From the sequence record NC_007456.1: 39,704 bases of DNA; one strand, given 5' to 3'. Below the pieces are notes generated by a model. The model ran no database searches. It saw only the letters and a list, made by a program, of their open reading frames with translations, and was not told where the DNA came from. Source of the DNA: Escherichia phage K1F. This document shows positions 1 to 36,550 of this stretch, in pieces (the first letter of the stretch is position 1; each line of letters opens with the position of its first letter). A program made the position numbers and the translations under genes.

Positions 1-178
1 TCTCACAGTTCAAGAACCTCAAGTCTCCCCATAGGCCCTCTTTAAGTCCAGACCAAAGGCCCTACCCCAGTCTATCATAAGGTTGGACCGATGGTCAAGA
101 CGTCAGGTCAACGATAGGTCTAGGCTATGGCTTAGGGAAGGACGATAGGTGGTGACTATTGGTCTGTCTCTGAGTCTC
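1..178. repeat. Left direct terminal repeat (DTR), 178 bp, identical to 39527-39704
   Basis: Window start TCTCACAGTTCAAGAACCTC...CTGTCTCTGAGTCTC recurs exactly at the window end; typical of T7-like linear genomes. Confidence 0.95.
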
Positions 179-189
179 TATCTGTATCA

Positions 190-316
190 GACCATAGGTC
201 ACAGCCATAAGTCATAACCTCTACATCTCATAACCATAAGTCAAAACCTACAGTCTCACTAACCTACAGTCCTACAACCATAAGACACCAACACCTACAG
301 TCATAGACCTACAGTT
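190..316. repeat. Array of short direct repeats (CCTACAGT x4, CCATAAGTC-like x4) next to left DTR
   Basis: CCTACAGT at 247, 263, 294, 308; CCATA(A/G)GTC at 192, 205, 234, 278; analogous to T7 repeats flanking the terminal repeat. Confidence 0.7.
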
Positions 317-567
317 AATAGACACACAGCTATAGACTTAAGGTCAGAGACATGTTAGTCAAAGACTATATCCTCTTACACCATGAGGCCGACGATAGCT
401 CAATCAATATTATTTCGAATTACCTATTGACTATAGGTCCAGACTATGGCCTAATAGCTTCCGTCAACACGACACGGCAACAACCGGATAGTGAAGACGC
501 CTGGTCATCCCGGTTAAGTAGACAGCCTGATAAGTCATACGAACAACAGGCAGATGACAGAAAGTAG

Positions 568-597
568 TTGACAAGATGTAACGATAAGATGTAAGCT
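568..597 (+). promoter_or_regulatory. Candidate host sigma70 early promoter (TTGACA, 18-bp spacer, TAAGCT)
   Basis: Perfect -35 TTGACA at 568-573; weak -10 TAAGCT at 592-597; position matches T7 A-promoter region upstream of gene 0.3. Confidence 0.3.
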
Positions 598-784
598 GTA
601 CCACATCGAAACAACGGTGATGACCAACACTGAAATGGTCTACCTGAAGTCCTCTGACTGAAGGGAATGCTCTTTAACAATCTGGATAAACTCTTAATGT
701 GCGCCGATAGCGACTAACTACAGGGCCTTTGAGTCTACATCTGAAGGCCCTGACTGATAGTCACTAACTTAAAGGATGGACACT

Positions 785-1030
785 ATGAAACACTTAAGCA
801 CAATCACTAATCGCAATGAAGTATTCGTGAACACTAAAGGTTATGCGTGGATTCAGCTTAAAGAGATGACAGGAGCGCGTCACCGTGTGGTAGTGCGCAA
901 GGTCTCAAGCAAGCCGTTCAGCAACTACAGCGTAGATACTGTGCGTATAAACAACGAGACCTACCTGATAGACTCACAGATAACCGTGAGTCCTACAGCG
1001 GGCGTCTCAGCTCCTTATTTCGCTAACTGA
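785..1030 (+). CDS. Hypothetical early protein (82 aa; alternative start 776)
   Basis: ORF with AAGGA 9 nt upstream of ATG 785; first ORF after putative early promoter; no recognised homolog. Confidence 0.5.
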   Translation: MKHLSTITNRNEVFVNTKGYAWIQLKEMTGARHRVVVRKVSSKPFSNYSVDTVRINNETYLIDSQITVSPTAGVSAPYFAN

Positions 1031-1113
1031 GAGTGATTAACTACAGGTCGTTAGACTGCTAGCGGCCTGACTGATAGTCACTAACACATACTTAACTTTG
1101 AGAGGATATACCT

Positions 1114-1623
1114 ATGGAACGTAACGCTAACGCATACTATGAGCTGCTGGCTGCAACTGTTGAGCTGTTCAATGAGCGTATTCAGTACGACGAAATAACT
1201 GAAGGCGATGACTACAGCGATGCGCTGCATGAGGTCGTAGACGGTCAGGTTCCGCACTATTACCACGAGATTTTTACGGTGATGGCTGCTGATGGTATAG
1301 ACCACGAGTTCGAAGACTCTGGGCTGATGCCTGAGACCAAGGACGTAACGCGTATACTACAAGCTCGCATCTATGAGGCGCTGTATAACGATGTGTCTAA
1401 TAGCTCTGAGGTGGTCTGGTTTGAGGCTGAAGAGGAAGACGAAAAGGCTGAATATTGGGTAGTTGACACTAGAACAGGCGAGATAATTGAGGCAGCTGTA
1501 TCACTTTACGAGGCTATTGCATGTGCAAAAGAACTCTATGAGGAAGGTTTTCACATGCAGGTCGAAGACATCAACGATAACGTAGTGTTCGATCCTGCGG
1601 CTGCTGAGGAGGACTGCGAGTGA
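1114..1623 (+). CDS. 0.3: Ocr-like anti-restriction DNA-mimic protein (gene 0.3), 169 aa with C-terminal extension
   Basis: Strong similarity to T7 Ocr core (NERIQYDEI...[45 protein letters not shown]); highly acidic; SD GAGAGGA upstream. Confidence 0.9.
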
Positions 1624-1839
1624 TGGTAACTTATGGTCTCTGCCAGCACCACGTCACCAGCGCCCGGCTTATAGTCCAGACCGGGCGGTTAACCCATGAT
1701 GAGACTATGCGTCTCCTGAAGGTGGTCTACAAGCGCCGCAAGCGTATCCACGACAGTTTGCACGCTGAGTGATAGACGAGAGGCCGTCGACTGATAGGTG
1801 GCCTCAAAGATTATCACTTAAATTGATAGGAGTTAACTA

Positions 1840-2007
1840 ATGAAATTTACAATCATCGCACTTTACATCGCCAGCATTCTGTCATGGCTAACTGCGGTCA
1901 TAGTCGATGGGAATGCACTACGTCTTGGCTGGCTGGCAGTGGACATAATATTCTCTCCGGTAGGGATCGTGCGCGGTCTACTGATGTGGATTGGACTGGC
2001 GGGATAA
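1840..2007 (+). CDS. Small hydrophobic early protein (55 aa)
   Basis: ATG with AGGAG SD (taggagttaactaATG); two hydrophobic segments; not in ORF track (<60 aa). Confidence 0.45.
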   Translation: MKFTIIALYIASILSWLTAVIVDGNALRLGWLAVDIIFSPVGIVRGLLMWIGLAG

Positions 2008-2010
2008 TCT

Positions 2011-2208
2011 ATGAGTCTTGCACTATTGATAGCCATAGGCTATGGACTTATCGCCTACGTGCTGGTGAGAGACATCGACAAAGCGCGTAAAGTCTACAAA
2101 TTCAACTATGTACGTCTGGGCCGCTGGACTGTACGTCAACCTAACGGACGATTCATGCGCAACTTAGCGAACGTCTGGGATATAGCAACTATTGGGAGCA
2201 AACTGTAA
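2011..2208 (+). CDS. Small early protein (65 aa), N-terminal hydrophobic segment
   Basis: ORF track 2011..2208; starts 4 nt after previous ORF stop; position like T7 genes 0.4-0.6. Confidence 0.4.
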   Translation: MSLALLIAIGYGLIAYVLVRDIDKARKVYKFNYVRLGRWTVRQPNGRFMRNLANVWDIATIGSKL

Positions 2209-2288
2209 TGAAAACCGTATACATTAACAGACCATCTATCCGTTAGCAGTGTAGAGCAATACAGCGTGACGTGTTCTTACACCGCCGC

Positions 2289-2468
2289 ATGGAGGCTGAG
2301 GGCCATAAGTCCGAACTGATGTGTCTGGCGTATGGTGGACGACCGATCACTGACGATGGTAAACTTTTAGTCTCAGGCTGGAAGGCGATAGACCAACGGT
2401 CAACCATCAAGCACACGACTCACGGTGACTTCAGTCATCTTCACGCTAACCCACTGATATGCAAGTAA
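2289..2468 (+). CDS. Possible small early ORF (59 aa from ATG 2289; track gives GTG 2271)
   Basis: Open frame ending just upstream of promoter at 2474; no clear SD. Confidence 0.2.
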   Translation: MEAEGHKSELMCLAYGGRPITDDGKLLVSGWKAIDQRSTIKHTTHGDFSHLHANPLICK

Positions 2469-2473
2469 TTATG

Positions 2474-2496
2474 ACTTAACTATCACTATAGGACTC
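2474..2496 (+). promoter_or_regulatory. Phage RNAP promoter copy 1 (ACTTAACTATCACTATA|GGACTC), upstream of the RNAP gene
   Basis: Matches the 11-copy consensus; located 70 bp upstream of gene 1 start. Confidence 0.7.
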
Positions 2497-2565
2497 AAGG
2501 TCTAAGACTACAAGTGAAAGACCAAAGAGACTTTAAGTGAAAGACTAATAACAAGGACTTTAAGT

Positions 2566-5247
2566 ATGAGCGTCATCTCTATTGACAAACACGACTTCTC
2601 TGATGTGTCGAACGCCATTGAGCCGTTTAACCTGCTGGCCGACCACTACGGGCAAGACCTTGCAGTCAAACAGCTTCAGCTTGAGCATGAGGCATACACT
2701 GAAGGCGAGCGACGTTTCATCAAAAACCTTGAGCGACAGACTGAGCGCGGGGAACTGGCAGACAATCAGGTCGCCAAGCCTTTGATGCAGACTCTGGTTC
2801 CTAAGATTGCGCAAGCCGTCAAGGAGTGGCACGAAGGTCCAGACGGGAAGCTGTCAACCTCTCGTCCTAGCGTAGCGTTCACCATGTTGAGCACTGAAGA
2901 GAGGGCCGTTAAAGACCGTTCTCTACGCATCTCCTGCGAGTCTGCTGCTGTCATCATACTGAAGGTCATCCTCTCCAAGCTGGTCAAGCCTGAAGGGATA
3001 CCGATTACACCGATGGCCTCCGCGATAGGTCGCACACTTGAGGACGAAATCCGCTTCGGGCGCATCCGTGACAAGGAGAAGGAGCACTTCAAGAAGGCGA
3101 TAGCTGATAACCTGAACAAGCGAGCTGGTGCATCCTATAAGAAAGCCTACATGCAAGCGGTCGAAGCATCCATGCTGGAGCAAGGCCAACTGGAAGATGC
3201 ATGGGGGACTTGGAGTCCTACAGAGGCTGTCCACGTTGGCATCAAGATGCTTGAGATTGTCATCCAGTCAACACAACTGGTCGAGCTTAAGCGTTACGGT
3301 GCTGGCAATGCAGCGGCTGATGTCGAGATGGTCCACCTGTCAGACTTCTGGGTCAAGAAGATGGCACAACGTGGATTCAGCCTTGCGGGTATCGCACCAG
3401 TCTATCAGCCTTGCGTCGTTCCACCTAAGCCGTGGACGGGTGTCGTAGGCGGTGGTTACTGGGCCAAAGGTCGCAGACCATTACCGCTGATTCGCTTAGG
3501 CTCTAAGTCTGCGGTAGCACGTTACGAAGACGTGTACATGCCTGAAGTCTATGAAGCTGTGAACATCATTCAGAATACACCTTGGAAAGTGAACAAGAAG
3601 GTTCTGGACGTGGTGAACATGGTCGAGAAGCTGAACAACACGCCTATTGATGACATCCCTCAGATGGAACCACTGAAGCCTGAGGCTTATGCGGGTGAGA
3701 CCGAGGAGGAACTCAAGGCATGGAAGAAGGCTGCTGCTGGTATCTATCGCCGCGAGAAGGCCAGACAGTCACGCAGGTTGTCACTGAGCTTTATCGTTAA
3801 CCAAGCGAACAAGTTCTCTCAGTTCAAGGCTATATGGTTCCCGTACAACATGGACTGGCGCGGTCGCGTCTACGCTGTGCCGATGTTCAACCCTCAGGGT
3901 AACGACATGCAGAAGGGTCTCCTGACTCTGGCAGTTGGCAAGCCTATTGGTGCTGACGGTTTCAAATGGCTAAAGGTACACGGTGCAAACTGCGCGGGTG
4001 TCGATAAAGTCACCTTCGAGGAGCGCATCAAGTGGGTGGAAGACAACCACGACAACATCATGGCTGCTGCTAAAGCACCTATGGACAGCATTGAGTGGTG
4101 GGGAAAGTTAGACTCTCCGTTCTGTTTCCTCGCGTTCTGCTTCGAGTATGCTGGCGTAATGCACCATGGCCTGTCTTACTCCTGCTCGCTGCCGATAGCG
4201 TTCGATGGGTCCTGCTCTGGGATTCAGCACTTCAGCGCGATGCTTCGTGACCACATCGGTGGACATGCGGTAAACCTGACGCCTTCCGGTAAAGTCCAAG
4301 ACATCTACCGCATCGTGTCCGACCGCATTGAGGAGGAGCTTAAAGTCCTGCTGGTTAACGGCACGGACAACGAGATGGTAACTCACGAGGACAAGAAAAC
4401 TGGTGAGATTACCGAGCGTCTCAAGCTGGGGACACGAGAGCTGGCCCGTCAGTGGCTGACCTACGGTATGTCACGAAAGGTCACTAAGCGTTCGGTCATG
4501 ACTCTGGCCTACGGGTCGAAAGAGTACGGCTTCGCAGACCAAGTTTACGAGGACATCGTGATGCCAGCGATTGACTCAGGGTCTGGCGCTATGTTCACTG
4601 AACCAAGCCAAGCATCTCGCTTCATGGCTAAGATGATTTGGGAAGCTGTGAGTGTGACCGTAGTTGCTGCGGTTGACGCGATGAAATGGCTTCAGGGTGC
4701 TGCCAAGCTGCTGGCGGCTGAAGTGAAGGACAAGAAGACGGGTGAAATCCTGAAGCCTTGCCTTCCGGTACACTGGGTCACACCTGATGGGTTCCCGGTC
4801 TGGCAGGAATACCGCAAGAAGGATACTACTCGTCTGAACCTGATGTTCTTAGGGTCCTTCAACCTTCAACCTACCGTCAACAAAGGTACGAAGAAAGAGC
4901 TGGATAAGCACAAGCAGGAGTCAGGCATTAGCCCGAACTTCGTCCACTCACAAGATGGTAGCCACCTCCGCAAGACTGTAGTCCATACTCACCGCAAGTA
5001 TGGCGTGATGTCGTTCGCAGTGATTCACGATAGCTTCGGGACCATCCCGGCTGACGCTGAGTATCTGTTCCGTGGGGTCCGTGAGACTATGGTCGAGACC
5101 TACCGCGACAACGATGTGCTGCTTGACTTCTACGAGCAGTTTGAATACCAGCTTCACGAGAGCCAGCGCGATAAGTTGCCAGAGCTTCCGAAGAAAGGTA
5201 AACTGAATATCGAAGACATCTTGTCTTCAGACTTTGCATTCGCTTAA
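2566..5247 (+). CDS. 1: Single-subunit DNA-directed RNA polymerase (T7 gene 1 homolog), 893 aa
   Basis: Collinear similarity to T7 RNAP from N-terminus (KHDFSD...PFN.LADHYG) to C-terminal DFAFA; AAGGA SD. Confidence 0.97.
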   Translation: MSVISIDKHDFSDVSNAIEPFNLLADHYGQDLAVKQLQLEHEAYTEGERRFIKNLERQTERGELADNQVAKPLMQTLVPKIAQAVKEWHEGPDGKLSTSRPSVAFTMLSTEERAVKDRSLRISCESAAVIILKVILSKLVKPEGIPITPMASAIGRTLEDEIRFGRIRDKEKEHFKKAIADNLNKRAGASYKKAYMQAVEASMLEQGQLEDAWGTWSPTEAVHVGIKMLEIVIQSTQLVELKRYGAGNAAADVEMVHLSDFWVKKMAQRGFSLAGIAPVYQPCVVPPKPWTGVVGGGYWAKGRRPLPLIRLGSKSAVARYEDVYMPEVYEAVNIIQNTPWKVNKKVLDVVNMVEKLNNTPIDDIPQMEPLKPEAYAGETEEELKAWKKAAAGIYRREKARQSRRLSLSFIVNQANKFSQFKAIWFPYNMDWRGRVYAVPMFNPQGNDMQKGLLTLAVGKPIGADGFKWLKVHGANCAGVDKVTFEERIKWVEDNHDNIMAAAKAPMDSIEWWGKLDSPFCFLAFCFEYAGVMHHGLSYSCSLPIAFDGSCSGIQHFSAMLRDHIGGHAVNLTPSGKVQDIYRIVSDRIEEELKVLLVNGTDNEMVTHEDKKTGEITERLKLGTRELARQWLTYGMSRKVTKRSVMTLAYGSKEYGFADQVYEDIVMPAIDSGSGAMFTEPSQASRFMAKMIWEAVSVTVVAAVDAMKWLQGAAKLLAAEVKDKKTGEILKPCLPVHWVTPDGFPVWQEYRKKDTTRLNLMFLGSFNLQPTVNKGTKKELDKHKQESGISPNFVHSQDGSHLRKTVVHTHRKYGVMSFAVIHDSFGTIPADAEYLFRGVRETMVETYRDNDVLLDFYEQFEYQLHESQRDKLPELPKKGKLNIEDILSSDFAFA

Positions 5248-5261
5248 CAGGAGAGAGAGCT

Positions 5262-5477
5262 ATGAAATTTGCACACAAGCATACTGGCGTTAATGGTGGG
5301 ACTCAAATCGTGACCGTAACAGAACACAACGGCAAGGGTCTGGTGAAGACCACGGTCATCCCTACCGAGATGTCCAAGCAGCTTAACATCCCGTTCAAGA
5401 CTCTTGTAGATCTGGTCGAGTCCAGCCACGAGAAGTACCTGAAGGACGCAGTGTCCAAGCTGGAGCAGGCCAAATGA
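5262..5477 (+). CDS. Hypothetical protein (71 aa)
   Basis: ORF with strong SD (aacaggagagagagctATG) immediately after gene 1. Confidence 0.55.
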   Translation: MKFAHKHTGVNGGTQIVTVTEHNGKGLVKTTVIPTEMSKQLNIPFKTLVDLVESSHEKYLKDAVSKLEQAK

Positions 5478-5551
5478 CAGACCTACAGTTACTGGCCTTG
5501 TGGCTAGGAGCACTCGCAGTATTCACTTTAATCCAACGCAGAAGAGGTTAA

Positions 5552-5574
5552 CCTAAACTATCACTATAGGATTA
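5552..5574 (+). promoter_or_regulatory. Phage RNAP promoter copy 2 (CCTAAACTATCACTATA|GGATTA)
   Basis: Consensus match; position equals T7 phi1.1 promoters downstream of gene 1. Confidence 0.75.
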
Positions 5575-5618
5575 GACTCAAGGTCATGACTCAAAGTCGT
5601 GGCCTTCATGATTAACCC
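5573..5618 (+). promoter_or_regulatory. Conserved ~45-bp element A (TAGACTCAAGGTCAT...GTGGCCTTCATGATTAACCC), RNase III-site-like
   Basis: One of three near-identical elements (5573, 12860, 36453) at positions matching T7 R1.1, R4.7, R18.5. Confidence 0.4.
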
Positions 5619-5647
5619 TGAATAAACACTACTGGAGATTTAACCGT

Positions 5648-5828
5648 ATGTATCAGAATACTATCAACTTCGAGCGCATCCGTGAACGTCAGCAGACTTG
5701 AAGGTTACATTCCTAAGGGCCGCAAGCTGAACAAGACTAAACGTGGAGGTGGTATCAAGGGTGCTTTCCGTAACGCTGAGGGCAAAGACTCTATGGTCAA
5801 CCAAGAGAAATACTTCGTAGGAGCATAA
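5648..5828 (+). other. Gene 1.1-like coding region split across two frames (17-codon ORF 5648-5701, then +1-frame basic segment KGRKLNKTKR... ending 5828)
   Basis: ATG 5648 has GGAG SD and NFE motif; downstream frame has GRKLNKTKR motif recalled from T7 gp1.1 but only a GTG start (5682). Confidence 0.4.
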
Positions 5829-5832
5829 CGCT

Positions 5833-6096
5833 ATGGGCCGACTTTATAGTGGCAACCTCAACGCTTTCAGAGCAGCGTGTGACAGGCTCTATCAGTTAGA
5901 CTTCGCTGTCATATCTCAAGAGTTTCAAGACCATGTGTCACGCCAAGAGTGCATGAAACTCAGGGTAGAGGACCGAGCTGGTAACATCTTCGCGCTTAAG
6001 ACCTTCGAACACCGCGATGAAAACGTACTGTACAACACTGCAACAGGCTTCCTTAACTGTCTCGCTAACCAACTCGACACATGGAGCAAATCATAA
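5833..6096 (+). CDS. 1.2: gp1.2-like protein (T7 dGTPase inhibitor homolog), 87 aa
   Basis: N-terminus MGRLYSGNLNAF... closely matches T7 gp1.2. Confidence 0.88.
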   Translation: MGRLYSGNLNAFRAACDRLYQLDFAVISQEFQDHVSRQECMKLRVEDRAGNIFALKTFEHRDENVLYNTATGFLNCLANQLDTWSKS

Positions 6097-7118
6097 TGAC
6101 AACTATTAAAACTAACCCGCACCGCGCTGTAGATTACTCTGAGTCTGGCGTTAAGAAGGCACTGGCAGCAGCCGGGTCGCTGGAAGCTGAAGTGAAGTAT
6201 GACGGTGTGCGCCTGAATCTCCCGGTCCTGCGTGAAGGTGAGACCTACTGGCTGAGCCGTGAGTCTAAACCTCTTCCAGCCTTGGAGTGGATGAACTCTG
6301 AGTTAGGGAATGCGTGGACCCAAGCTGACTGGCGTTGGTTCCTACGTCAAGCTGGATACGAAGGCGTGGGTCTGATGATTGACGGAGAGGTCATGGTCAA
6401 AGGCGTTGACTTCAACACATCATCGGGTCTCATCCGAACGAAGTGGCTGAAGCCTAGCAACGAAGAGTTCGCTGAATGTTATCCGGGACGAGGCAATAAG
6501 GTCCCGTTCTGGGTAGCCCGGTCAAGACTTAAGGTTGTTGTATACGGTGTCGTAGACATGACAACCATTGCTGACCCGAAAGCCGAAGGTCCTATCCATA
6601 GCGTAACCCGCCTGAAGGCCGAAGCTATCGTCCCTCTCCTTCAGAAATACTTCCCGGAAATCGACTGGGTTCTCTCTGAGAGTCATACAGTGTTCAACCT
6701 TGAGTCTCTTCGTGATTTGTACGAGGAGAAGCGAGCAGATGGACATGAAGGTCTGGTAGTCAAGGACCCACTGGGAAAATACAAGCGTGGTAAGAAGTCT
6801 GGTATGTGGAAGATGAAGCCAAGTGAAGAGGCAGATGGTCACGTTGTTCGCCCGGTGTGGGGAACAGAAGGTCTAGCCAACGAAGGTATGGTCATCGGCT
6901 TTGACGTTATGCTCGAGAACGGGATGGAGGTCTCCGCAACTAACATTAGTCGCGCCCTTATGTCCGAGTTCACAGAGAATGTTAAGTCAGACCCTGACTA
7001 CTACAAGGGGTGGGCTTGCCAGATTACCTACATGGAGGAGACACCAGATGGCTCATTGCGACATCCCTCGTTCGACCAGTGGCGTGGGACGGAAGATAAC
7101 CCGACCATTAAGAGCTAA
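6096..7118 (+). CDS. 1.3: ATP-dependent DNA ligase (T7 gene 1.3 homolog)
   Basis: IKTNP...EVKYDGVR (adenylation Lys motif) ...DGEVMVKGVDFNT...EGLVVKDP...WKMKP...WACQITYMEETPDGSLRHPSF; start at ATG 6096 (track 6081) overlapping 1.2 stop. Confidence 0.93.
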   Translation: MTTIKTNPHRAVDYSESGVKKALAAAGSLEAEVKYDGVRLNLPVLREGETYWLSRESKPLPALEWMNSELGNAWTQADWRWFLRQAGYEGVGLMIDGEVMVKGVDFNTSSGLIRTKWLKPSNEEFAECYPGRGNKVPFWVARSRLKVVVYGVVDMTTIADPKAEGPIHSVTRLKAEAIVPLLQKYFPEIDWVLSESHTVFNLESLRDLYEEKRADGHEGLVVKDPLGKYKRGKKSGMWKMKPSEEADGHVVRPVWGTEGLANEGMVIGFDVMLENGMEVSATNISRALMSEFTENVKSDPDYYKGWACQITYMEETPDGSLRHPSFDQWRGTEDNPTIKS

Positions 7119-7127
7119 CTAAATGTC

Positions 7128-7160
7128 AACCCAGTGGTCTTATGACTGCTGGGTTTCTTT
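7128..7160 (+). terminator. Rho-independent terminator (early terminator TE analog)
   Basis: 12-bp stem AACCCAGTGGTC/GACTGCTGGGTT with TTAT loop followed by TCTTT; directly after ligase as in T7. Confidence 0.7.
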
Positions 7161-7182
7161 GCGTCTGGGCCACCAGCTAGAC

Positions 7183-7205
7183 CCTAAGCTATCACTATAG
7201 GACAA
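7183..7205 (+). promoter_or_regulatory. Phage RNAP promoter copy 3 (CCTAAGCTATCACTATA|GGACAA)
   Basis: Consensus match with G at -12. Confidence 0.7.
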
Positions 7206-7229
7206 CCATCAACAACCTAAGGAGACTCT

Positions 7230-7487
7230 ATGTCTAAGAACTTAATGTTCAACCGTTATTCTAATACCTTCCACCTGTCCAACAACCCGTTCGCTTGCAT
7301 TAAGCGCAACGAGAAACTTGGCTACTTCGGGAAGGCCGTTAAGCTGTCACCTACAGTCTATGCTCTGATTACTCCTGGAAAAGCTGAAGAGGCTCGCCAG
7401 AAGCGTGAGACAAATGTGCCCGTGGTCTACACTAAGTGGCCTCGCGTTCGGCTGTTTGTTGAGGTCGTAAAGGAGGTGTTCTTATGA
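7230..7487 (+). CDS. Hypothetical protein (85 aa), gene 1.4-1.6 position
   Basis: ORF with AAGGAG SD downstream of promoter 7183. Confidence 0.6.
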   Translation: MSKNLMFNRYSNTFHLSNNPFACIKRNEKLGYFGKAVKLSPTVYALITPGKAEEARQKRETNVPVVYTKWPRVRLFVEVVKEVFL

Positions 7488-7930
7488 CTACTTATGATAA
7501 TATGATTATCAAGCTAATCGATATGAACGATGGTAATCCAGACCATTTATATAACTGTTCCTTCAATTGTGCTGGAGTTCCTTGTAACATCTGCCCCGCT
7601 AAGGATGATGACGATATGACCTTAGGTGAAATCCGAGCGATGGACCCGCGTAAATCTCATCTGAATAAACTTGAGGTAACTCCTACAGATGACCAGCCTT
7701 CCACTGAATCAATCGAAGGTGTCACTAAGCCTTCCCATTACATGCTGTTCGACGACATTGAGGCTATCGAAGTGATTGCCCGTTCAATGACTCGTGAGCA
7801 GTTCAAAGGGTACTGCTTAGGGAACATCCTTAAGTACCGCCTACGCGCTGGTAAGAAAGTCAGAACTTGCTTACTTAGAGAAAGCCAGGGCGAAAGTTGG
7901 ATTCTATGGGGAACTGTACGAGAAACATAA
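7484..7930 (+). CDS. gp1.7-like protein (DUF3310-like motifs); C-terminus appears to continue in +1 frame to 7952
   Basis: Motifs KPSHY...IEAIEV...FKGYCLGNILKYRLRAGKK; after AAGAAAG (7853-7859) the +1 frame reads SELAYLEKARAKVGFYGELYEKHKDKCYDA*. Confidence 0.6.
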   Translation: MTTYDNMIIKLIDMNDGNPDHLYNCSFNCAGVPCNICPAKDDDDMTLGEIRAMDPRKSHLNKLEVTPTDDQPSTESIEGVTKPSHYMLFDDIEAIEVIARSMTREQFKGYCLGNILKYRLRAGKKVRTCLLRESQGESWILWGTVRET

Positions 7931-7941
7931 GGATAAGTGCT

Positions 7942-8169
7942 ATGACGCGTGAAGAACTTCAAGCTGCATCGGCGAAGCGTAGAGCGCAAAGATTTTATCG
8001 TGCATACAAGGCGCTGCGTAAGGGTATGTCGATGTTCAAATTAGGACACAGGGAGTATTGTGATAGCGACCTCCTACCGTTTGCTTATAAGAAGACACCT
8101 AGTCTGATTATCAAGGTAGAGGAGTATGAATATTCTGATGACTGTGTTATGGTGAACCGCTATGCTTAA
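7942..8169 (+). CDS. Hypothetical basic protein (75 aa)
   Basis: ATG 7942 with AAGGATAAG SD; in frame with track ORF 7897..8169. Confidence 0.5.
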   Translation: MTREELQAASAKRRAQRFYRAYKALRKGMSMFKLGHREYCDSDLLPFAYKKTPSLIIKVEEYEYSDDCVMVNRYA

Positions 8170-8266
8170 CGATGTTCTGTACTTCGGCTTAATTTGCGCT
8201 GGAGTAGGCGCGTTACTTCGCTTAATGTATTGGGAGATAGAGGTGGAATATGGTAAAACCAAGTGA
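8162..8266 (+). CDS. Possible small hydrophobic ORF (34 aa)
   Basis: ATG overlapping previous stop; weak SD. Confidence 0.25.
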   Translation: MLNDVLYFGLICAGVGALLRLMYWEIEVEYGKTK

Positions 8267-8348
8267 GTGGTGCCGTGAGATGTATGAGAAGACGCTCAAC
8301 CCGGACTACATCACGTTATACAACCAATGGAAGGAGCGCGGTTTATGA
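8250..8348 (+). CDS. Possible small ORF (32 aa)
   Basis: GAGGTGG SD; stop overlaps gene 2 start (ATGA). Confidence 0.35.
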
Positions 8349-8503
8349 CTGAGGTTGAGAAGAAATACATCGTGGAGCTTGAGGGTCGCGTTCAGTCCTT
8401 CGAGGTTCCGTTGTATGCAAAGTCTCTTGAAGAGGCTACCCTGAAGTCCCAAGAGTATGAGGACGCTGGGTTTGTGGTCGGACGGATTCGTCCTGAGACC
8501 TAA
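8345..8503 (+). CDS. 2: Gp2-like inhibitor of host RNA polymerase (52 aa)
   Basis: ...[17 protein letters not shown]...GFVVGRIRP resembles T7 Gp2 (FEVPIYAETLDEA...GFEVTRVRP); AAGGAG SD; not in ORF track (<60 aa). Confidence 0.75.
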
Positions 8504-8521
8504 ACTATCACTGTAGGACAG
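8499..8521 (+). promoter_or_regulatory. Phage RNAP promoter copy 4, variant (CCTAAACTATCACTGTA|GGACAG; G at -3)
   Basis: Consensus match except -3; overlaps gene 2 stop; upstream of SSB. Confidence 0.6.
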
Positions 8522-8560
8522 ACGTCCAGTTCGTAACTTTAAAATAGGAGATTTACACCG

Positions 8561-8614
8561 ATGGCTAAAGAGCAACTGAAGACTTTCACCACTCCGGTAG
8601 CTGGCATAGTTTGA
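8561..8614 (+). other. 17-codon leader ORF in frame with SSB gene, ended by TGA at 8612
   Basis: ATG 8561 has strong SD (AGGAGA, 10-nt spacing); same frame as ATG 8624; MAKEQLKTF resembles T7 gp2.5 N-terminus MAKKIFTS. Confidence 0.4.
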
Positions 8615-8623
8615 GCCTTACGC

Positions 8624-9259
8624 ATGGCTGACAAAGCAGACACCAAGTTTAACGAGCGTGGTGAGCATAAGGTTAACCTGACTTTCAGTCTGGATGACCC
8701 GAAGGTCCGTAAGATGATTGATGTCTTACAGAAGATTCACGACGATGCGTATGCGAAAGCACTTGCAGACCACGAGAAGAACCCACCTCAGGTTCAGCGT
8801 GGCAAGAAGCCTATTGAACCACGAGAAGGCGACATGCCGTGGATTGAGAATGGTGACGGTACTGTTACCATGAAGTTTAAATGCTTCGCGTCTTACCTGA
8901 AAGACGGCAAGTCCGAGCCTATCGTATTACGGTTCTACGACACCGATGCTAAACTCATCCGTGACGTCCCGAATATTGGCGCTGGCTCAAAGCTGAAGGT
9001 CAAGTTTAAAGTCCTGCCGTTTAAGTGGAACGCTGCGACTGGTGCAAGCGTTAAGCTCCAACTTGAGTCCTGCCTTCTGGTAGAACTGAAGGAGTGGAAA
9101 GGTGATGGTGCTGGTGGCGATGGTGGCTGGGGTGACGATGAAGACCTCGGTACTGGCTACAAAGCGTCAACCGATGGTGACTTCGGGTCTGATGACTTCG
9201 GTGACGATGGTTCCGAAGGTGGTGACGACTCCAACTCTGGTGGCGATTACGACTTCTAA
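8624..9259 (+). CDS. 2.5: Single-stranded DNA-binding protein (T7 gp2.5 homolog) with acidic C-terminal tail ending DYDF
   Basis: KVNLT...HEKNPP...RGKKPIEPREGDMPW...NGDGT...KFKCFASY...VKLQLESCLLVEL and acidic tail ...GGDYDF as in T7 (...DGDF). Confidence 0.9.
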   Translation: MADKADTKFNERGEHKVNLTFSLDDPKVRKMIDVLQKIHDDAYAKALADHEKNPPQVQRGKKPIEPREGDMPWIENGDGTVTMKFKCFASYLKDGKSEPIVLRFYDTDAKLIRDVPNIGAGSKLKVKFKVLPFKWNAATGASVKLQLESCLLVELKEWKGDGAGGDGGWGDDEDLGTGYKASTDGDFGSDDFGDDGSEGGDDSNSGGDYDF

Positions 9260-9711
9260 TGGCCCAATGGTCTGCAAAACGGGGGCACTCTGTGGGTGCC
9301 TACCGCTCTGGACTTGAAGCCAAGAACCAGCAGTGGCTGGAACAGAACGGCGTCAAAGCGGAGTACGAAAGCCATTATATCAACTATGTGATTCCGGCTT
9401 CCGACCACAAGTATACACCAGACTTTATCCTTCCTAACGGTATCATCGTGGAGACCAAAGGAATCTTCGCAGTGGAAGACCGTAAGAAGCACCTTATGGT
9501 ACGAGAACAGCACCCAGAGTTAGACATCCGGTTCGTGTTCTCAAGTTCCCGCTCCAAGTTATACAAAGGGTCTCCGACCACGTATGGCGCATGGTGCGAA
9601 AAGAACGGCTTTAAGTATGCCGATAAGTTCATCCCGGTTGAGTGGCTGCGAGAGACGACTGTACGTCTGCCTTCCGGCATTCTCATCCCAAAGAAAGGAG
9701 TTAAGAAATGA
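9259..9711 (+). CDS. 3: Endonuclease I, Holliday-junction resolvase (T7 gene 3 homolog)
   Basis: YRSGLE...YVIPAS.H.YTPDF.LPNGI.VETKG...DRKKHL.VREQHPELDIRFVFSSSRSKLYKGSPT.YG..CEK.G. Confidence 0.93.
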   Translation: MAQWSAKRGHSVGAYRSGLEAKNQQWLEQNGVKAEYESHYINYVIPASDHKYTPDFILPNGIIVETKGIFAVEDRKKHLMVREQHPELDIRFVFSSSRSKLYKGSPTTYGAWCEKNGFKYADKFIPVEWLRETTVRLPSGILIPKKGVKK

Positions 9712-10178
9712 GCAAGCAGTTTAAACTGTTAAGTGCTGAGTGTGGCTGGCCTTGTGGGACTATCGTTACCCAGTGTGAGAAGGACCCCCAGCCAGCGATA
9801 GGAATGATTCTAGTTGAGTGCCAGACTCCAGGCACCTACAAACACGGGTCTAAAGGCCACAATACGCAACCTGAGGGAATGTGGGGAGCGTGGGTCTGTA
9901 CTGAACGCCTTGAAGAAATCAAGACAGAAGAGAAACACCAAGTCCTGCCAACTTCGAGCGTACCTCCTGTGACTGTGAAGCGTGAAGTCCTGACAATCGA
10001 CAAGATTGGTGTGGGCCAGACGTTCATCGTCCACGGCAAGCCTGACGAAGTTTACGTGAAGATTAGCAACTCACACGTCTTCAACCATAAGCGTCTCCAG
10101 ATGCACACCACCGGACGCACAACGCTTCACCCAGCACATGAATCTAGTGGTCGTAGAATTGGTGGTGTACAATGGTAA
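9708..10178 (+). CDS. Hypothetical Cys-containing protein (156 aa) between genes 3 and 3.5
   Basis: ORF with AAGGAG SD, start overlaps gene 3 stop (ATGA); no T7 counterpart at this position. Confidence 0.6.
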   Translation: MSKQFKLLSAECGWPCGTIVTQCEKDPQPAIGMILVECQTPGTYKHGSKGHNTQPEGMWGAWVCTERLEEIKTEEKHQVLPTSSVPPVTVKREVLTIDKIGVGQTFIVHGKPDEVYVKISNSHVFNHKRLQMHTTGRTTLHPAHESSGRRIGGVQW

Positions 10179-10630
10179 GTAAGGTGCAATTCAACCCACG
10201 GTCCCGGACTGACGCTATCTTCGTTCACTGTTCGGCTACCAAGCCAGAGATGGACATCGGGGTAGAGACCATCCGTATGTGGCACAAGCAGCAGGCTTGG
10301 CTGGACGTAGGCTACCACTTTATCATCAAGCGTGATGGTACTGTGGAAGAGGGTCGCCCGGTAAATGTCGTAGGGTCACACGTTAAGGATTGGAACTCCC
10401 GGTCTGTAGGCGTCTGCCTTGTAGGTGGAATCAACGCTAAGGGTCAGTTTGAAGCTAACTTCACTCCAGCCCAGATGAACTCCCTGCGCAACAAGCTGGA
10501 TGACCTGAAGGTCATGTATCCTCAGGCAGAGATAAGAGCACACCATGACGTAGCACCAAAGGCGTGTCCAAGTTTCGACTTACAGCGCTGGCTGTCTACC
10601 AATGAACTGGTCACTTCCGACCGTGGTTAA
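10172..10630 (+). CDS. 3.5: N-acetylmuramoyl-L-alanine amidase / T7 lysozyme homolog (gene 3.5)
   Basis: VQF..R...DAIFVHCSATKP...WH..Q.WLDVGYHFIIKRDGTVE.GR...VGSH.KG.N..S.GVCLVGGI...AHHDVAPKACPSFDL.RW...ELVTSDRG. Confidence 0.93.
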   Translation: MVSKVQFNPRSRTDAIFVHCSATKPEMDIGVETIRMWHKQQAWLDVGYHFIIKRDGTVEEGRPVNVVGSHVKDWNSRSVGVCLVGGINAKGQFEANFTPAQMNSLRNKLDDLKVMYPQAEIRAHHDVAPKACPSFDLQRWLSTNELVTSDRG

Positions 10631-10654
10631 TAAACTCTAAGGGAGAACAACCCA

Positions 10655-10870
10655 ATGATTAAACTTATCGAATTTCTTGGTCGTCTGGTGGTGCGTGGTT
10701 ATCGTCGTGCTTCGGTACTGGAACGAAAGGTAGAAAAGAAGACTGCTGATGGTGCGGCTGATGCTGCTGCTCTGGCTGACAAGCTGACCATCGCGTCACT
10801 GGAAGCTGGCATGAAGGCTCGTCAGGCTGATACCAAAGCTGACCAGTTGGAGCAGTTCTTCAAAGACTAA
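10655..10870 (+). CDS. Hypothetical protein (71 aa), Ala-rich, likely helical
   Basis: ORF with GGGAGA SD after lysozyme gene. Confidence 0.55.
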   Translation: MIKLIEFLGRLVVRGYRRASVLERKVEKKTADGAADAAALADKLTIASLEAGMKARQADTKADQLEQFFKD

Positions 10871-10888
10871 ACTATCACCTTAGGGATG
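10866..10888 (+). promoter_or_regulatory. Degenerate phage promoter-like site (AACTATCACCTTA|GGGA; mismatches at -4 and -3)
   Basis: Shares the -13 to -5 block with the consensus; just upstream of gene 4. Confidence 0.35.
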
Positions 10889-10935
10889 GGACCATGAGTC
10901 CTGTCCCTCTGTTCGCATTTGTGATTAAGGAGTGA

Positions 10936-12856
<1,921 letters not shown>

Positions 12857-12859
12857 GTC

Positions 12860-12900
12860 TAGACTCAAGGTCATTCACAGCGAGTGGCCTTTATGATTAG
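12860..12900 (+). promoter_or_regulatory. Conserved ~45-bp element B (RNase III-site-like), before DNA polymerase gene
   Basis: TAGACTCAAGGTCATTCACAGCGAGTGGCCTTTATGATTAG; same family as 5573 and 36453; T7 R4.7 position. Confidence 0.4.
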
Positions 12901-12920
12901 ACTAAAGCGGAGGATTAACC

Positions 12921-14936
12921 ATGTTTGACCTTAAGGATATTTGGGGTTCGGACATCGAGACCAACGGTCTCCTTGACACCGTGTCCCAGTTCCATTGTGG
13001 GGTCCTGATTAATGCCGAGTCGAATGAGACCCTTAAGTATGGGGTAGCGCCGATGGTCGGTATCGTCGGTGGCTTCAAAGAGTATGTACAGAAGGTGGAA
13101 GAAATTGCTGCAACGCCTACGGGTATGCTGGTCTTCCATAACGGTATCAACTATGACGTCCCGGCTATAGACAAGCTGAAGCGTTTGTACTTTGGGAAAC
13201 GATTTAACTTCCCGAAACACAAGATGATTGATACCTTGGTGCTGGGCCGCTTGATGTATCCCAACATTAAGTTCTCAGACATGGGAGCGGTGAAAGCTGG
13301 TCGTCTGCCACCTAAGATGATGGGACGCCAGTCTCTTGAGGCTTGGGGCTATCGTCTCGGTGAGATGAAAGGTGAATACAAACACGATTACGTTGCCAAA
13401 TGCAAGGCTGAAGGTATCGAATATAAGGCTGGGGACGAATGGTTGTTCCCGTCTCAGGAGATGCTGGACTATAACGTTCAAGACGTTGTGGTCACACTGG
13501 CGTTGTTCAAGAAGTTCCTGACTGACAAGTATTACTTCCAGTCTGAACAGTTCGCTTTCGAACAGATTTATGCGTTGCGTCTGGAACATGATGCTGCGTG
13601 GACCTGTGCTAAGATGGAACGTAACGGCTATCCAATGAACACAGAGATGGTCGAAGGCTTATATCGTGAACTCACCGTCAAACGTGCAGAGTTGCTGGAC
13701 AAGCTGCGTTCGACTTTCGGTAGCTGGTACGCACCAAAGGGAGGCAAGGAGTTCTTCAGGCATCCACGGACAGGTAAGGACCTTCCGAAGTATCCGAGGG
13801 TCGTGTATCCTAAGGTTGGTGGCATCTTTAAGAAGCCGAAGAACAAAGCTCAACGATTAGGTCTTGAACCTTGTGAACGCGATACGCGAGACACGATGGA
13901 GGGAGCACCATTCACACCTATCACTTACGTTGAGTTTAATCCGGGAAGCGGGGACCACTTAGCGAAAGTTCTGATGGAGCGTGGCTGGGAGCCTGTGGAC
14001 TTCACTGACACCGGGAAACCTGTAGTCGATGACGAGACGTTAGAACATGTTAAGTTACCAGACGCAGAGGCTCAGGCTTGCGTAGAGCTGGTCCGTGAGT
14101 ATCTGGTAGTCCAGAAGCGCATAGGTCAGGCTGCTGAAGGTAAGAACGCATGGTTGAAACTTGTAGGGCCAGACGGACGTATGCACGGTTCAATCAACCC
14201 ATGTGGTGCAGTAACCGGACGTGCTACCCATAGTTCACCAAACATGGCTCAGGTCCCGGCTAACGGTGCTCCGTATGGTGAGACTTGCCGTGGTGCTTTC
14301 GGTGCAGCTTGGAACAAGACGGATGGTAAGCCAGACCCTTGGATTCAAGTGGGTGTGGATGCTTCAGGTCTTGAGCTTCGTTGTCTGGGGAACCGAGCGG
14401 CTCCGTTTGATGGTGGTGCCTATGCGAAGACTGTGGTAGAAGGTGACATCCACTGGGCCAACGCAGTAAACGCTGGGTTAGCACCTAACGTCCCACGCGA
14501 TAAGTCGAACCACGACCATGATGCTTTCCGTAATAACGCTAAGACGTTCATCTATGCGTTCCTGTATGGTGCAGGGGCCGCTAAGATTGGACTGATAGTA
14601 GGCGGTGGTAAGAAGGAAGGTTCAGCTCTCATGAAGAAATTCATTGAGGGTACACCAGCCATCAAAGACCTCAGGGAAGCTGTGAGTAATACGTTAATCT
14701 CTGAGTCCAAATGGGTAGACGGTGAGAATATCGTGAAGTGGAAACGCCGCTGGCTTAAAGGCTTGGATGGTCGACGCATCCACATCCGGTCTCCACACTC
14801 AGCACTTAACGCCTTACTTCAAGGTGATGGTGCGGTAGTCTGTAAGCACTGGATTGTTGAGACAGAACGTATGCTCGAAGAGGCCGGGTATGTCCACGGC
14901 TGGGAAGGAGACTTCGCGTACATGGCATGGGTGCAT
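12921..14936 (+). CDS. 5: DNA polymerase (T7 gene 5 homolog), exon 1 (672 codons, ends ...YMAWVH)
   Basis: 3'-5' exo motif DIETNGL; ...FHNG.NYDVPA...EAWGYRLGEMKGEYK...DYNVQDVVVT...; ORF track stops at TAA 14937-14939, the first intron codon. Confidence 0.9.
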
Positions 14937-15534
14937 TAACATCATGGTGCACATTAAATCTGGTGAACTCGGTGAACTCCTAATGGGACAATACCGAGCC
15001 AAGCCATAGGGAGGATGTATGAGAGGCAAGAAGTTAATTCTTGAGGCCACTGAGACTGGCTGCATAATCCCTACGTCACATAAATTGAATCAGGATGGAT
15101 ACTTCCGAAAGAGGACTAACGGTGTCCTTGAGATGTATCATAGAACTGTATGGATTAAAGCTAATGGTCCAATACCTGAAGGTTTCGAAGTAGACCACAA
15201 GTGTCGTAATAGAGCTTGTTGCAACGTCGAACATCTACAAGTATTAGACCGTGACTCACACTTAGTCAAGACCAACCAAGAGCGATACGCTGCTAGGAAG
15301 CTAGAAGCACGAGACTACTGGGTAGAGACTGGGTGTACAGGAACGAAGTTAGCCGAAGTATTCAATGTGTCGTTCTCAGCCGCCTGTGGGTGGATTAGAG
15401 AGTGGAAGGCGTAGAGACTATCCGAAAGGAGTAGGGCCGTGGGTGAGATTCCCACGTAACCCGAAGCGCCAGACAGTCACCTCAAAGACTGATGATATAG
15501 TCCGACACTTCCAGTAATGGGAGAATACAGAAAG
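14937..15534 (+). mobile_element. Group I-type intron (598 bp) in DNA polymerase gene, carrying an HNH endonuclease ORF
   Basis: Exon 1 ends in U (14936), intron ends in G (15534); P1-like pairing of exon GUGCAU (14931-14936) with GUGCAC (14947-14952); exons join in frame to give WVH|DELQIACRT. Confidence 0.7.
15019..15414 (+). CDS. HNH homing endonuclease (131 aa) within the intron
   Basis: HNH motif EVDHKCRNRACCNVEHLQV; strong SD AGGGAGGA; free-standing ORF. Confidence 0.85.
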   Translation: MRGKKLILEATETGCIIPTSHKLNQDGYFRKRTNGVLEMYHRTVWIKANGPIPEGFEVDHKCRNRACCNVEHLQVLDRDSHLVKTNQERYAARKLEARDYWVETGCTGTKLAEVFNVSFSAACGWIREWKA

Positions 15535-17050: not shown

Positions 17051-17176
17051 TATACTGGGCCGGACTTCTGGCCATTTACTGCATGTACAAGTGGTTCGGG
17101 TCGAACAACCGACCTAAACACTGAGTCTAACCGATAGTCATATCCTATCAATCCAACAGTCATCCATAGGTGAAAC

Positions 17177-17199
17177 ACTAAACTATCACTATAGGGACT
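17177..17199 (+). promoter_or_regulatory. Phage RNAP promoter copy 6 (ACTAAACTATCACTATA|GGGACT)
   Basis: Consensus match; T7 phi6.5 position. Confidence 0.75.
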
Positions 17200-17260
17200 T
17201 TAGGGCCTAAGATATGACTATAAGATAGACTTTAGTCTTAACTTAAAGAGGAGATTCAAG

Positions 17261-25296: not shown

Positions 25297-25320
25297 CTTA
25301 TTGAAGGGCCTATAGATTTA

Positions 25321-25343
25321 CCTTAACTATCACTATAGGGACT
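25321..25343 (+). promoter_or_regulatory. Phage RNAP promoter copy 9 (CCTTAACTATCACTATA|GGGACT)
   Basis: Consensus match; upstream of gene 13. Confidence 0.75.
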
Positions 25344-25372
25344 ATAGGCCCTTAAGGTTATAAGGAGACTTT

Positions 25373-35860: not shown

Positions 35861-35993
35861 TAAACAAAACCATTTTGCCATTAAGTTGGTGGGGTAGATG
35901 TTAGAAGGTTGTGGAGGTAGAGGCTAACTACACGCTAACCAACGTATGTAACAACTTTGGGTCACGGACGACCCGCTTTAAACTGGAGGTTTT

Positions 35994-36188: not shown

Positions 36189-36448
36189 CGCAGATGGACT
36201 TAGAGAAGTTCCTATTGATGCTGGATACTGAACGTGCTCGACTCATGCTGCAAGACTTACGTGACGACTCTAAGCGTTCACCTCAGCTCTACAACGCCAT
36301 TGAGAAGCTGCTTGCTCGTCACAACTTTGTGTTAAGCAAGGTGTCTGTGGACGAGAAGACGCTGGCTGATATGGAGGCCCTGAACGCAGAGTACGATAAG
36401 GTGCTTTCAGCGACTGAGGATAATGACACCGGGTATGGTGTTCAATAA
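36185..36448 (+). CDS. 18: Terminase small subunit (T7 gene 18 homolog)
   Basis: ...RSPQLYNAIEKLLARH.F... matches T7 gp18 (RSPQLYNAIEKLLDRHKF); ATGA overlap with holin. Confidence 0.85.
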   Translation: MTQMDLEKFLLMLDTERARLMLQDLRDDSKRSPQLYNAIEKLLARHNFVLSKVSVDEKTLADMEALNAEYDKVLSATEDNDTGYGVQ

Positions 36449-36452
36449 GTGT

Positions 36453-36498
36453 TAGACTCAAGGTCATTACTATATGTAGTGGCCTTTATGGTTAACAC
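36453..36498 (+). promoter_or_regulatory. Conserved ~45-bp element C (RNase III-site-like), after gene 18
   Basis: TAGACTCAAGGTCATTACTATATGTAGTGGCCTTTATGGTTAACAC; T7 R18.5 position. Confidence 0.4.
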
Positions 36499-36550
36499 TA
36501 ACTAGTGGAGGCGACTCTACGTGAAAATCTGATAAACCGGGAGGGCAACT

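Follow-up and report, generated by a model that had tools for sequence, protein, structure and literature searches.

What is the short element that begins at position 5573 of the Escherichia phage K1F genome, directly behind a phage promoter, and is it, together with two further copies downstream, a counterpart of the sites at which RNase III cuts the mRNAs of phage T7? An earlier note on this DNA had described three copies of a conserved element of about 45 bp, had equated them with T7 R1.1, R4.7 and R18.5, and had suggested that they serve mRNA processing or stability. The window analyzed here, a stretch of 39,704 bp, is the K1F genome (a 1-kb probe was 99.9% identical to AM084414 / NC_007636). 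K1F is a T7-like phage (Autographiviridae, Studiervirinae, Kayfunavirus), and its ORFs follow the T7 gene order, all on the + strand. Processing of T7-group mRNAs by RNase III has been textbook knowledge since the 1970s-1980s, with T7 R1.1 as the standard model substrate, and as a class the K1F elements are already known, namely as the textbook RNase III hairpins of T7 and T3. The record AM084414 lists only protein-coding features and the signal and mature peptides of gp17, with no promoters, terminators or RNA-processing sites. A literature search for K1F or Kayfunavirus combined with RNase III returned nothing specific, the K1F genome paper (Scholl & Merril 2005) lying outside that scope, and no transcript-end data were found for K1F.

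Three conserved intergenic elements on the + strand

The two half-motifs of the element, TAGACTCAAGGTCAT and GTGGCCTTYATGRTTA, each had exactly three exact matches in the window, all on the + strand, starting at 5573, 12860 and 36453 for the former and at 5599, 12884 and 36479 for the latter. With up to 3 mismatches allowed, no shuffle of the window equaled the observed number of matches for either half-motif, and in 40 kb chance alone falls far short of producing a 15-mer and a 16-mer in three exact copies each. Thus the existence of the three copies and their exact half-motifs stood as first described, whereas the ends that had been quoted for them (5618, 12900 and 36498) were slightly too far; the conserved cores are 42, 40 and 42 nt long (Table 1). 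The spacers between the half-motifs, given before as 10-12 nt, measured 11, 9 and 11 nt in the copies at 5573, 12860 and 36453. Conservation far above the intergenic background was borne out: identity among the three elements is 83%, compared with 53-62% in their flanks, which is about the level expected for unrelated sequence under this scoring. The description of the first copy as lying after gene 1 needs correction, because it is found about 325 nt downstream of that gene, with a small ORF (5262-5477) and a promoter in between.

RNA structure and the recognition helix

Folding of each element as + strand RNA, which the earlier note had proposed as a check, gave a stable two-stem hairpin in all three cases (-19.4 to -23.4 kcal/mol, z from -3.3 to -4.7), and 0 of 200 shuffles folded as well. 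In each copy, an asymmetric internal loop (5′ ACUC / 3′ YAUGR) separates a lower from an upper stem. When the K1F copies were folded jointly with seven T7 sites, the lower stem comprised 9 bp and the upper stem 8 bp, the internal loop had 4 nt on its 5′ side and 5 nt on its 3′ side, and compensatory changes occurred in 9 pairs. Compensation is visible within the lower stem of the three K1F copies themselves, where columns 6/53 read G-C, G-C and U-A, and columns 8/51 read U-A, C-G and U-A. The internal loop sequence is kept across K1F, EcoDS1 (another Kayfunavirus phage), T3 and T7, and a UAUGG variant of its 3′ side is common to the R18.5-position copies of these phages.

The upper stem is the same in all three copies (A-U A-U G-C G-C, U-G C-G, A-U U-G), and its 8 pairs are all those of T7 R1.1. 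According to Pertzev and Nicholson, the binding of E. coli RNase III and its choice of cleavage site are set by a proximal, a middle and a distal box, which in R1.1-derived substrates comprise 4 bp, 2 bp (U12:G27 and C13:G26) and 2 bp (canonical UA/UG), respectively (PMC1540722). The minimal substrate described there has U12:G27 and C13:G26 where the K1F copies have their middle pairs, U-G and C-G. As for the determinants of reactivity, proximal box, middle segment and distal box of the K1F copies are all permissive, and no antideterminant pairs were found. The boxes were placed on the K1F pairs by the numbering of that substrate and by what we take to be the structure of R1.1. Besides the two-stem form, the loop and the recognition helix, K1F and T7 sites have in common their strand, their intergenic placement and their association with phage promoters (PMC6938266); in contrast, the sequences of lower stem and apical loop differ between the two phages, with compensation.

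A covariance model of the sites and its performance on T3

A covariance model (model R1) was trained on the three K1F copies and seven T7 sites, leaving phage T3 outside the training set, and was run without filters on T3. In the T3 record (AJ318471), ten stem-loops carry the label 'RNase III recognition site', itself assigned largely by homology to T7, and the model recovered 8 of these 10 (R0.3, R0.5, R1, R1.1, R1.3, R4.7, R6.5 and R18.5), with no further match at E≤1. T3 sites and K1F copies share only about 55-65% identity over the whole hairpin. Both of the missed sites, R3.8 and R13, are of a different, promoter-associated architecture. T7 R6.5, which also lay outside the training set, was recovered as well. 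In the window, the three K1F copies, being training members themselves, scored 58-63 bits on the + strand, compared with at most 11 bits on the - strand. Searching Rfam gave no match at gathering thresholds, and none at the coordinates of these elements at E≤1; since Rfam appears to have no model for T7-type RNase III sites, this result is uninformative about the RNase III reading.

Covariation was followed across related sequences. Conservation of the region around copy 1 extends to 221 phage records. Viral contigs were scanned with a gapped pattern and then with the covariance model, which yielded 58 matches, representing 51 distinct sequences. In these 51 sequences, aligned by fitting to the model, 92.8% of cells were paired, compared with at most 49% when partners were slid, and compensatory (double-sided) changes occurred in 15 of 17 pairs, including 9 of 9 in the lower stem. 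No shuffle reached any of the observed values of the covariation measures. Part of the invariance of the upper stem is due to ascertainment, because the search pattern CTCAAGGTC...GGCCTT fixed part of it. The conserved U-G pairs would become C-A mismatches on the opposite strand.

Gene order assigns the copies to R1.1, R4.7 and R18.5

The positions of the K1F copies relative to genes 1.2, 5, 18 and 18.5 match those of the sites in T3 and EcoDS1 (Table 1). The R1.1-position hairpin follows the promoter directly and lies upstream of gene 1.2, the R4.7-position hairpin ends 13 nt upstream of the start of gene 5 (12921), and the R18.5-position hairpin stands between gene 18 (end 36448) and gene 18.5 (start 36551). 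In this layout, with R1.1 after a promoter and a small gene before it, followed by R4.7 and R18.5, T3 is closer to K1F than T7 is. The equivalence proposed before therefore holds as far as gene order goes, but sequence identity fails to tell the sites apart, as K1F copies are 60.6% identical to T3/T7 sites at the same position and 58.2% identical to those at different positions; the labels R1.1, R4.7 and R18.5 thus rest on gene order. Within the genus, each of the three positions is occupied by a hairpin in EcoDS1 as well, 89-97% identical to the K1F copy. Same-position copies of K1F and EcoDS1 are 92.5% identical on comparison, and different-position copies 66.5%, which indicates stable orthologous loci within the genus. 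Concerted evolution of the three copies within the genus was considered and ruled out, same-position copies being far more alike.

The promoter core was found at 11 sites on the K1F + strand, 10 of them with at most 1 mismatch and the one at 10871 with 3 mismatches, and each lies a short way upstream of a gene or gene block. Most of the eleven cores are preceded by CTAA or TTAA, and they are unannotated in AM084414. One of them, a perfect core (ACTATCACTATAGGA) at 2479 (region 2479-2535, + strand), lies about 75 nt upstream of the RNA polymerase gene 1, a place where EcoDS1 has an annotated promoter and T7 has no phage promoter. A sigma-70-like match at 12874-12903, overlapping copy 2, was dismissed as noise because the scan found fewer promoter-like sites than it found in shuffles.

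Table 1. Candidate RNase III-type hairpins and promoter cores of K1F, with the corresponding sites of T3 and EcoDS1
Feature	Phage	Coordinates	Strand	Remarks
Hairpin, R1.1 position	K1F	5566..5623, core 5573-5614	+	model 58.5 bits; MFE -19.4 kcal/mol, z -3.7
Hairpin, R4.7 position	K1F	12853..12908, core 12860-12899	+	model 60.5 bits; MFE -19.4 kcal/mol, z -3.3
Hairpin, R18.5 position	K1F	36446..36503, core 36453-36494	+	model 63 bits; MFE -23.4 kcal/mol, z -4.7
Diverged hairpin upstream of gene 0.2	K1F	707..769	+	31.5 bits, E 1.5e-4; MFE -25.6 kcal/mol, z -3.7
Hairpin between genes 0.2 and 0.3 (R0.3 position)	K1F	1030..1086	+	39.3 bits, E 2e-6; MFE -25.8 kcal/mol, z -5.9
Hairpin between genes 0.35 and 0.36 (R0.5-like)	K1F	1766..1822	+	34.6 bits, E 3e-5; MFE -24.1 kcal/mol, z -4.7
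R3.8-like: weak promoter-like sequence, hairpin 10882-10908, conserved tail CTGTTCGCATT	K1F	10871..10925	+	upstream of gene 4; z -2.6
R13-like hairpin	K1F	25304..25353, 12-bp arms 25304-25315 and 25342-25353	+	upstream of gene 13; z -3.1
R6.5-like long hairpin, tentative	K1F	17134..17221	+	encloses promoter 17182; perfect 11-bp lower stem, z -2.5
Phage promoter core ACTATCACTATAGGA	K1F	5557..5571	+	directly before copy 1 hairpin
Promoter cores ACTATCACTATAGG(A/G)	K1F	2479, 5557, 7188, 8504, 10871, 17182, 20003, 21002, 25326, 32602, 38857	+	
R1.1 position	T3	6003-6053		immediately follows promoter phi1.1 (5984-6006); separated from gene 1 by small gene 1.05
R4.7 position	T3	12970-13018		directly before gene 5
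R18.5 position	T3	35038-35088		between genes 18 and 18.5
R1.1 position	EcoDS1	6048-6105 (model match)		directly after annotated promoter 'phi' 6034-6056
R4.7 position	EcoDS1	13041-13096		
R18.5 position	EcoDS1	35936-35993		

Further hairpins of the same type in K1F

Three copies proved to be an undercount of the family, since the covariance model added three more diverged intergenic hairpins of the early region (at 707, 1030 and 1766), all outside its training set. In the hairpins at 707 and 1030, the internal loop (ACUAC / GACUGAU) resembles that of T7 R1. For comparison, the sites of T7 are R0.3, R0.5, R1, R1.1, R1.3, R3.8, R4.7, R6.5, R13 and R18.5. An R3.8-like element upstream of gene 4 aligns with R3.8 of T3 and T7, with TCCCTYTGTTCGCATT in common, and the model matched neither this element nor R3.8 of T3 or T7. 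The arms of an R13-like hairpin enclose the promoter at 25326-25340, just as T3 R13 encloses phi13 at the same position; because the arm sequences are not conserved, this equivalence is an analogy and is held with less confidence. A long hairpin at 17134..17221, which can be called R6.5-like only tentatively, aligned in part with R6.5 of T3 and T7 and had no match to the model, whereas R6.5 of both T7 and T3 did.

No convincing equivalent of R1 was found in K1F. Behind the promoter at 2479, CTCAAGGTCT...AGACC forms a weak hairpin resembling the 5′ half of the RNase III motif, and this R1-like candidate was not counted (z -1.0, no match to the model). An equivalent of R1.3 is not expected, since the overlap of genes 1.2 and 1.3 (at about 6081-6096) means that there is no gap between them to hold one. 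K1F also differs from T7 by an additional site in the early region, ahead of gene 0.2, and by the lack of gp0.7. A homolog of the gp0.7 kinase was sought by tblastn over the whole window and none was found (best E 0.98); the K1F early region (1-2566) has small genes 0.1-0.38 in its place. In T7 this kinase raises RNase III activity (PMC4858673), so the efficiency of processing in K1F could differ from that in T7; the difference concerns the context of the hairpins and not the hairpins themselves.

It is conceivable, if unlikely, that K1F has two classes of hairpin tuned to different cleavage rates, which would give temporal control of mRNA processing without gp0.7. Speculatively, the early class would be marked by the ACUAC / GACUGAU loop (707, 1030 and, more loosely, 1766) and the later-region class by a recognition helix identical to that of T7 R1.1 (5573, 12860 and 36453), and by the same speculation the division might extend to Kayfunavirus phages other than K1F.

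Predicted cleavage positions

When the 3′ half-motif of K1F was searched in T7 (NC_001604), matches were found at 880, 1458, 5877, 6438, 13882, 18553 and 36846. The T7 records NC_001604 and V01146 list promoters and terminators, and RNase III sites are absent from both. We take the T7 cleavage coordinates to be 890 (R0.3), 1468 (R0.5), 5887 (R1.1), 6450 (R1.3), 13892 (R4.7), 18563 (R6.5) and 36856 (R18.5), values that reportedly go back to the work of Dunn & Studier in 1983. On these values, the T7 cut falls at the 11th base of each half-motif match (at the 13th for R1.3), and this constant offset supports both the coordinates assumed and the homology of K1F and T7 sites. All three K1F copies can be aligned with the T7 RNase III sites, and by the same offset (e.g. 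R1.1, 5887) their scissile bonds are predicted at 5609/5610, 12894/12895 and 36489/36490, on the 3′ side of the internal loop.

A proposed role in mRNA processing and the alternatives

Alignment with T7, identity of the upper stem, recovery of the T3 sites, gene order and covariation all agree with the earlier suggestion of mRNA processing or stability elements, and we consider it very probable that the three K1F elements are T7-type RNase III processing hairpins acting on + strand transcripts. Each would form a hairpin of about 55 nt in which some 9 bp make up the lower stem and 8 bp or more the upper stem, with the internal loop between the two and an apical loop on top. Host RNase III, a double-strand-specific endonuclease, would bind the upper stem by way of the proximal box AAGG/CCUU, the middle segment UC/GG and the distal box AU/GU, and would make a single cut on the 3′ side of the internal loop, after 5609, 12894 and 36489. 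Through such cleavage, defined mRNAs would arise from the long polycistronic transcripts of the phage. The product upstream of the cut would retain the hairpin as its 3′ end, a structure that in T7 protects mRNA from 3′ exonucleases, and the downstream product would have its 5′ end a few nt before the next ribosome binding site. Transcripts initiated at the promoter at 5557 would begin with the hairpin, and the cut would trim a 5′ leader of about 41 nt. RNase III cleavage has been demonstrated experimentally for T7, whereas for K1F the present data cover the sequence, the fold, covariation, homology to the sites of T3 and T7, and gene-order position, and we infer cleavage in K1F, the exact bond, and any effect on mRNA stability or translation from T7 biology. 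T7 is able to grow without RNase III (PMC6938266), which suggests that such elements tune expression and are not essential, and that their contribution to fitness may be modest.

Hairpins of this kind might also bind RNase III without being cleaved, or might stabilize 3′ ends or modulate translation independently of cleavage. Variants of R1.1 that bind the enzyme and resist cleavage do exist, owing to a G-C pair at position 4 of the proximal box (PMC1540722), the K1F hairpins are stable by themselves, and the kinase that stimulates RNase III is missing from K1F. The upper-stem pairs of K1F, however, are exactly those of T7 R1.1, which is cleaved efficiently, and none of them is replaced by an antideterminant. 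In addition, K1F, EcoDS1, T3 and T7 all keep the sequence of the loop in which the scissile bond lies, a feature that a pure structural stabilizer would not need. We therefore regard a role without cleavage as improbable. Stable intergenic hairpins on the transcribed strand could also be read as sites at which the RNA polymerase of host or phage terminates or pauses, yet no copy is followed by a U-tract (the tails read UUAACCCUGAAUAA, UUAGACUAAAGCGG and UUAACACUAACUAG), and a terminator scan of positions 1-13500 picked up neither the 5573 nor the 12860 element. The upper stem, with its A-U and G-U pairs and the adjoining internal loop, is unlike the G+C-rich stems of terminators, and the EcoDS1 and T3 records place the terminators TE and Tphi at other locations. 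Termination or pausing is thus a very improbable function of these hairpins.

Similarly slight is the chance that the elements act as DNA, whether as protein-binding sites, as recombination or replication signals, or as mobile palindromes, with the RNA fold being incidental. They are indeed repeated, partly palindromic and intergenic, and one overlaps a promoter region. Against this, the signal of the covariance model is confined to one strand (58-63 bits versus at most 11 bits), the conserved G-U pairs have meaning only in + strand RNA, and compensatory changes preserve pairing while the sequence drifts. Moreover, the identity of K1F and EcoDS1 copies, 92.5% at the same position and 66.5% otherwise, points to orthologous loci and not to recent transposition. 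RNase III processing hairpins thus remain the reading that we favor for the three elements.

Annotation of K1F and its relatives

Equivalent hairpins occur in EcoDS1 and other Kayfunavirus genomes and in about 220 related phage records, and in those records that were inspected they carry no RNA-element annotation. In AM084414, gp4.4, a 49-codon ORF at approximately 12747-12896, overlaps the 12860 hairpin, and in many relatives the hairpin of the 5573 type is covered by ORFs labeled 'hypothetical protein' or 'microtubule-binding protein'. These ORFs are probably spurious calls on structured RNA.

Two other features of the window were observed in passing. The group I intron family RF00028 gave a full-length match (model 1-253) at 14927-15524 on the + strand, inside the DNA polymerase gene 5, at 35.7 bits (E 1.2e-5), which is under the gathering score of 50. 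This match spans the small ORF gp5.3 (15019-15414), and in AM084414 gp5 is given as a join of two pieces around this region. Bonocora & Shub reportedly described, in 2004, introns of group I that interrupt DNA polymerase genes in T7-like phages. At the left end (1-350), many short direct repeats (CCTACAGTC, CATAAGTC and ATAGGTC) are found, as is typical of T7-like phages in the region beside the terminal repeat and concatemer junction.

The main value of these results lies in annotation, as AM084414 and many related Kayfunavirus records leave these hairpins unannotated and some have doubtful small ORFs, such as gp4.4, drawn across them. The covariance model, which was specific on T3, could be used to annotate RNase III sites across T7-like phages, and such annotation would help in the engineering of K1F, which is of interest for therapy against E. 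coli K1.
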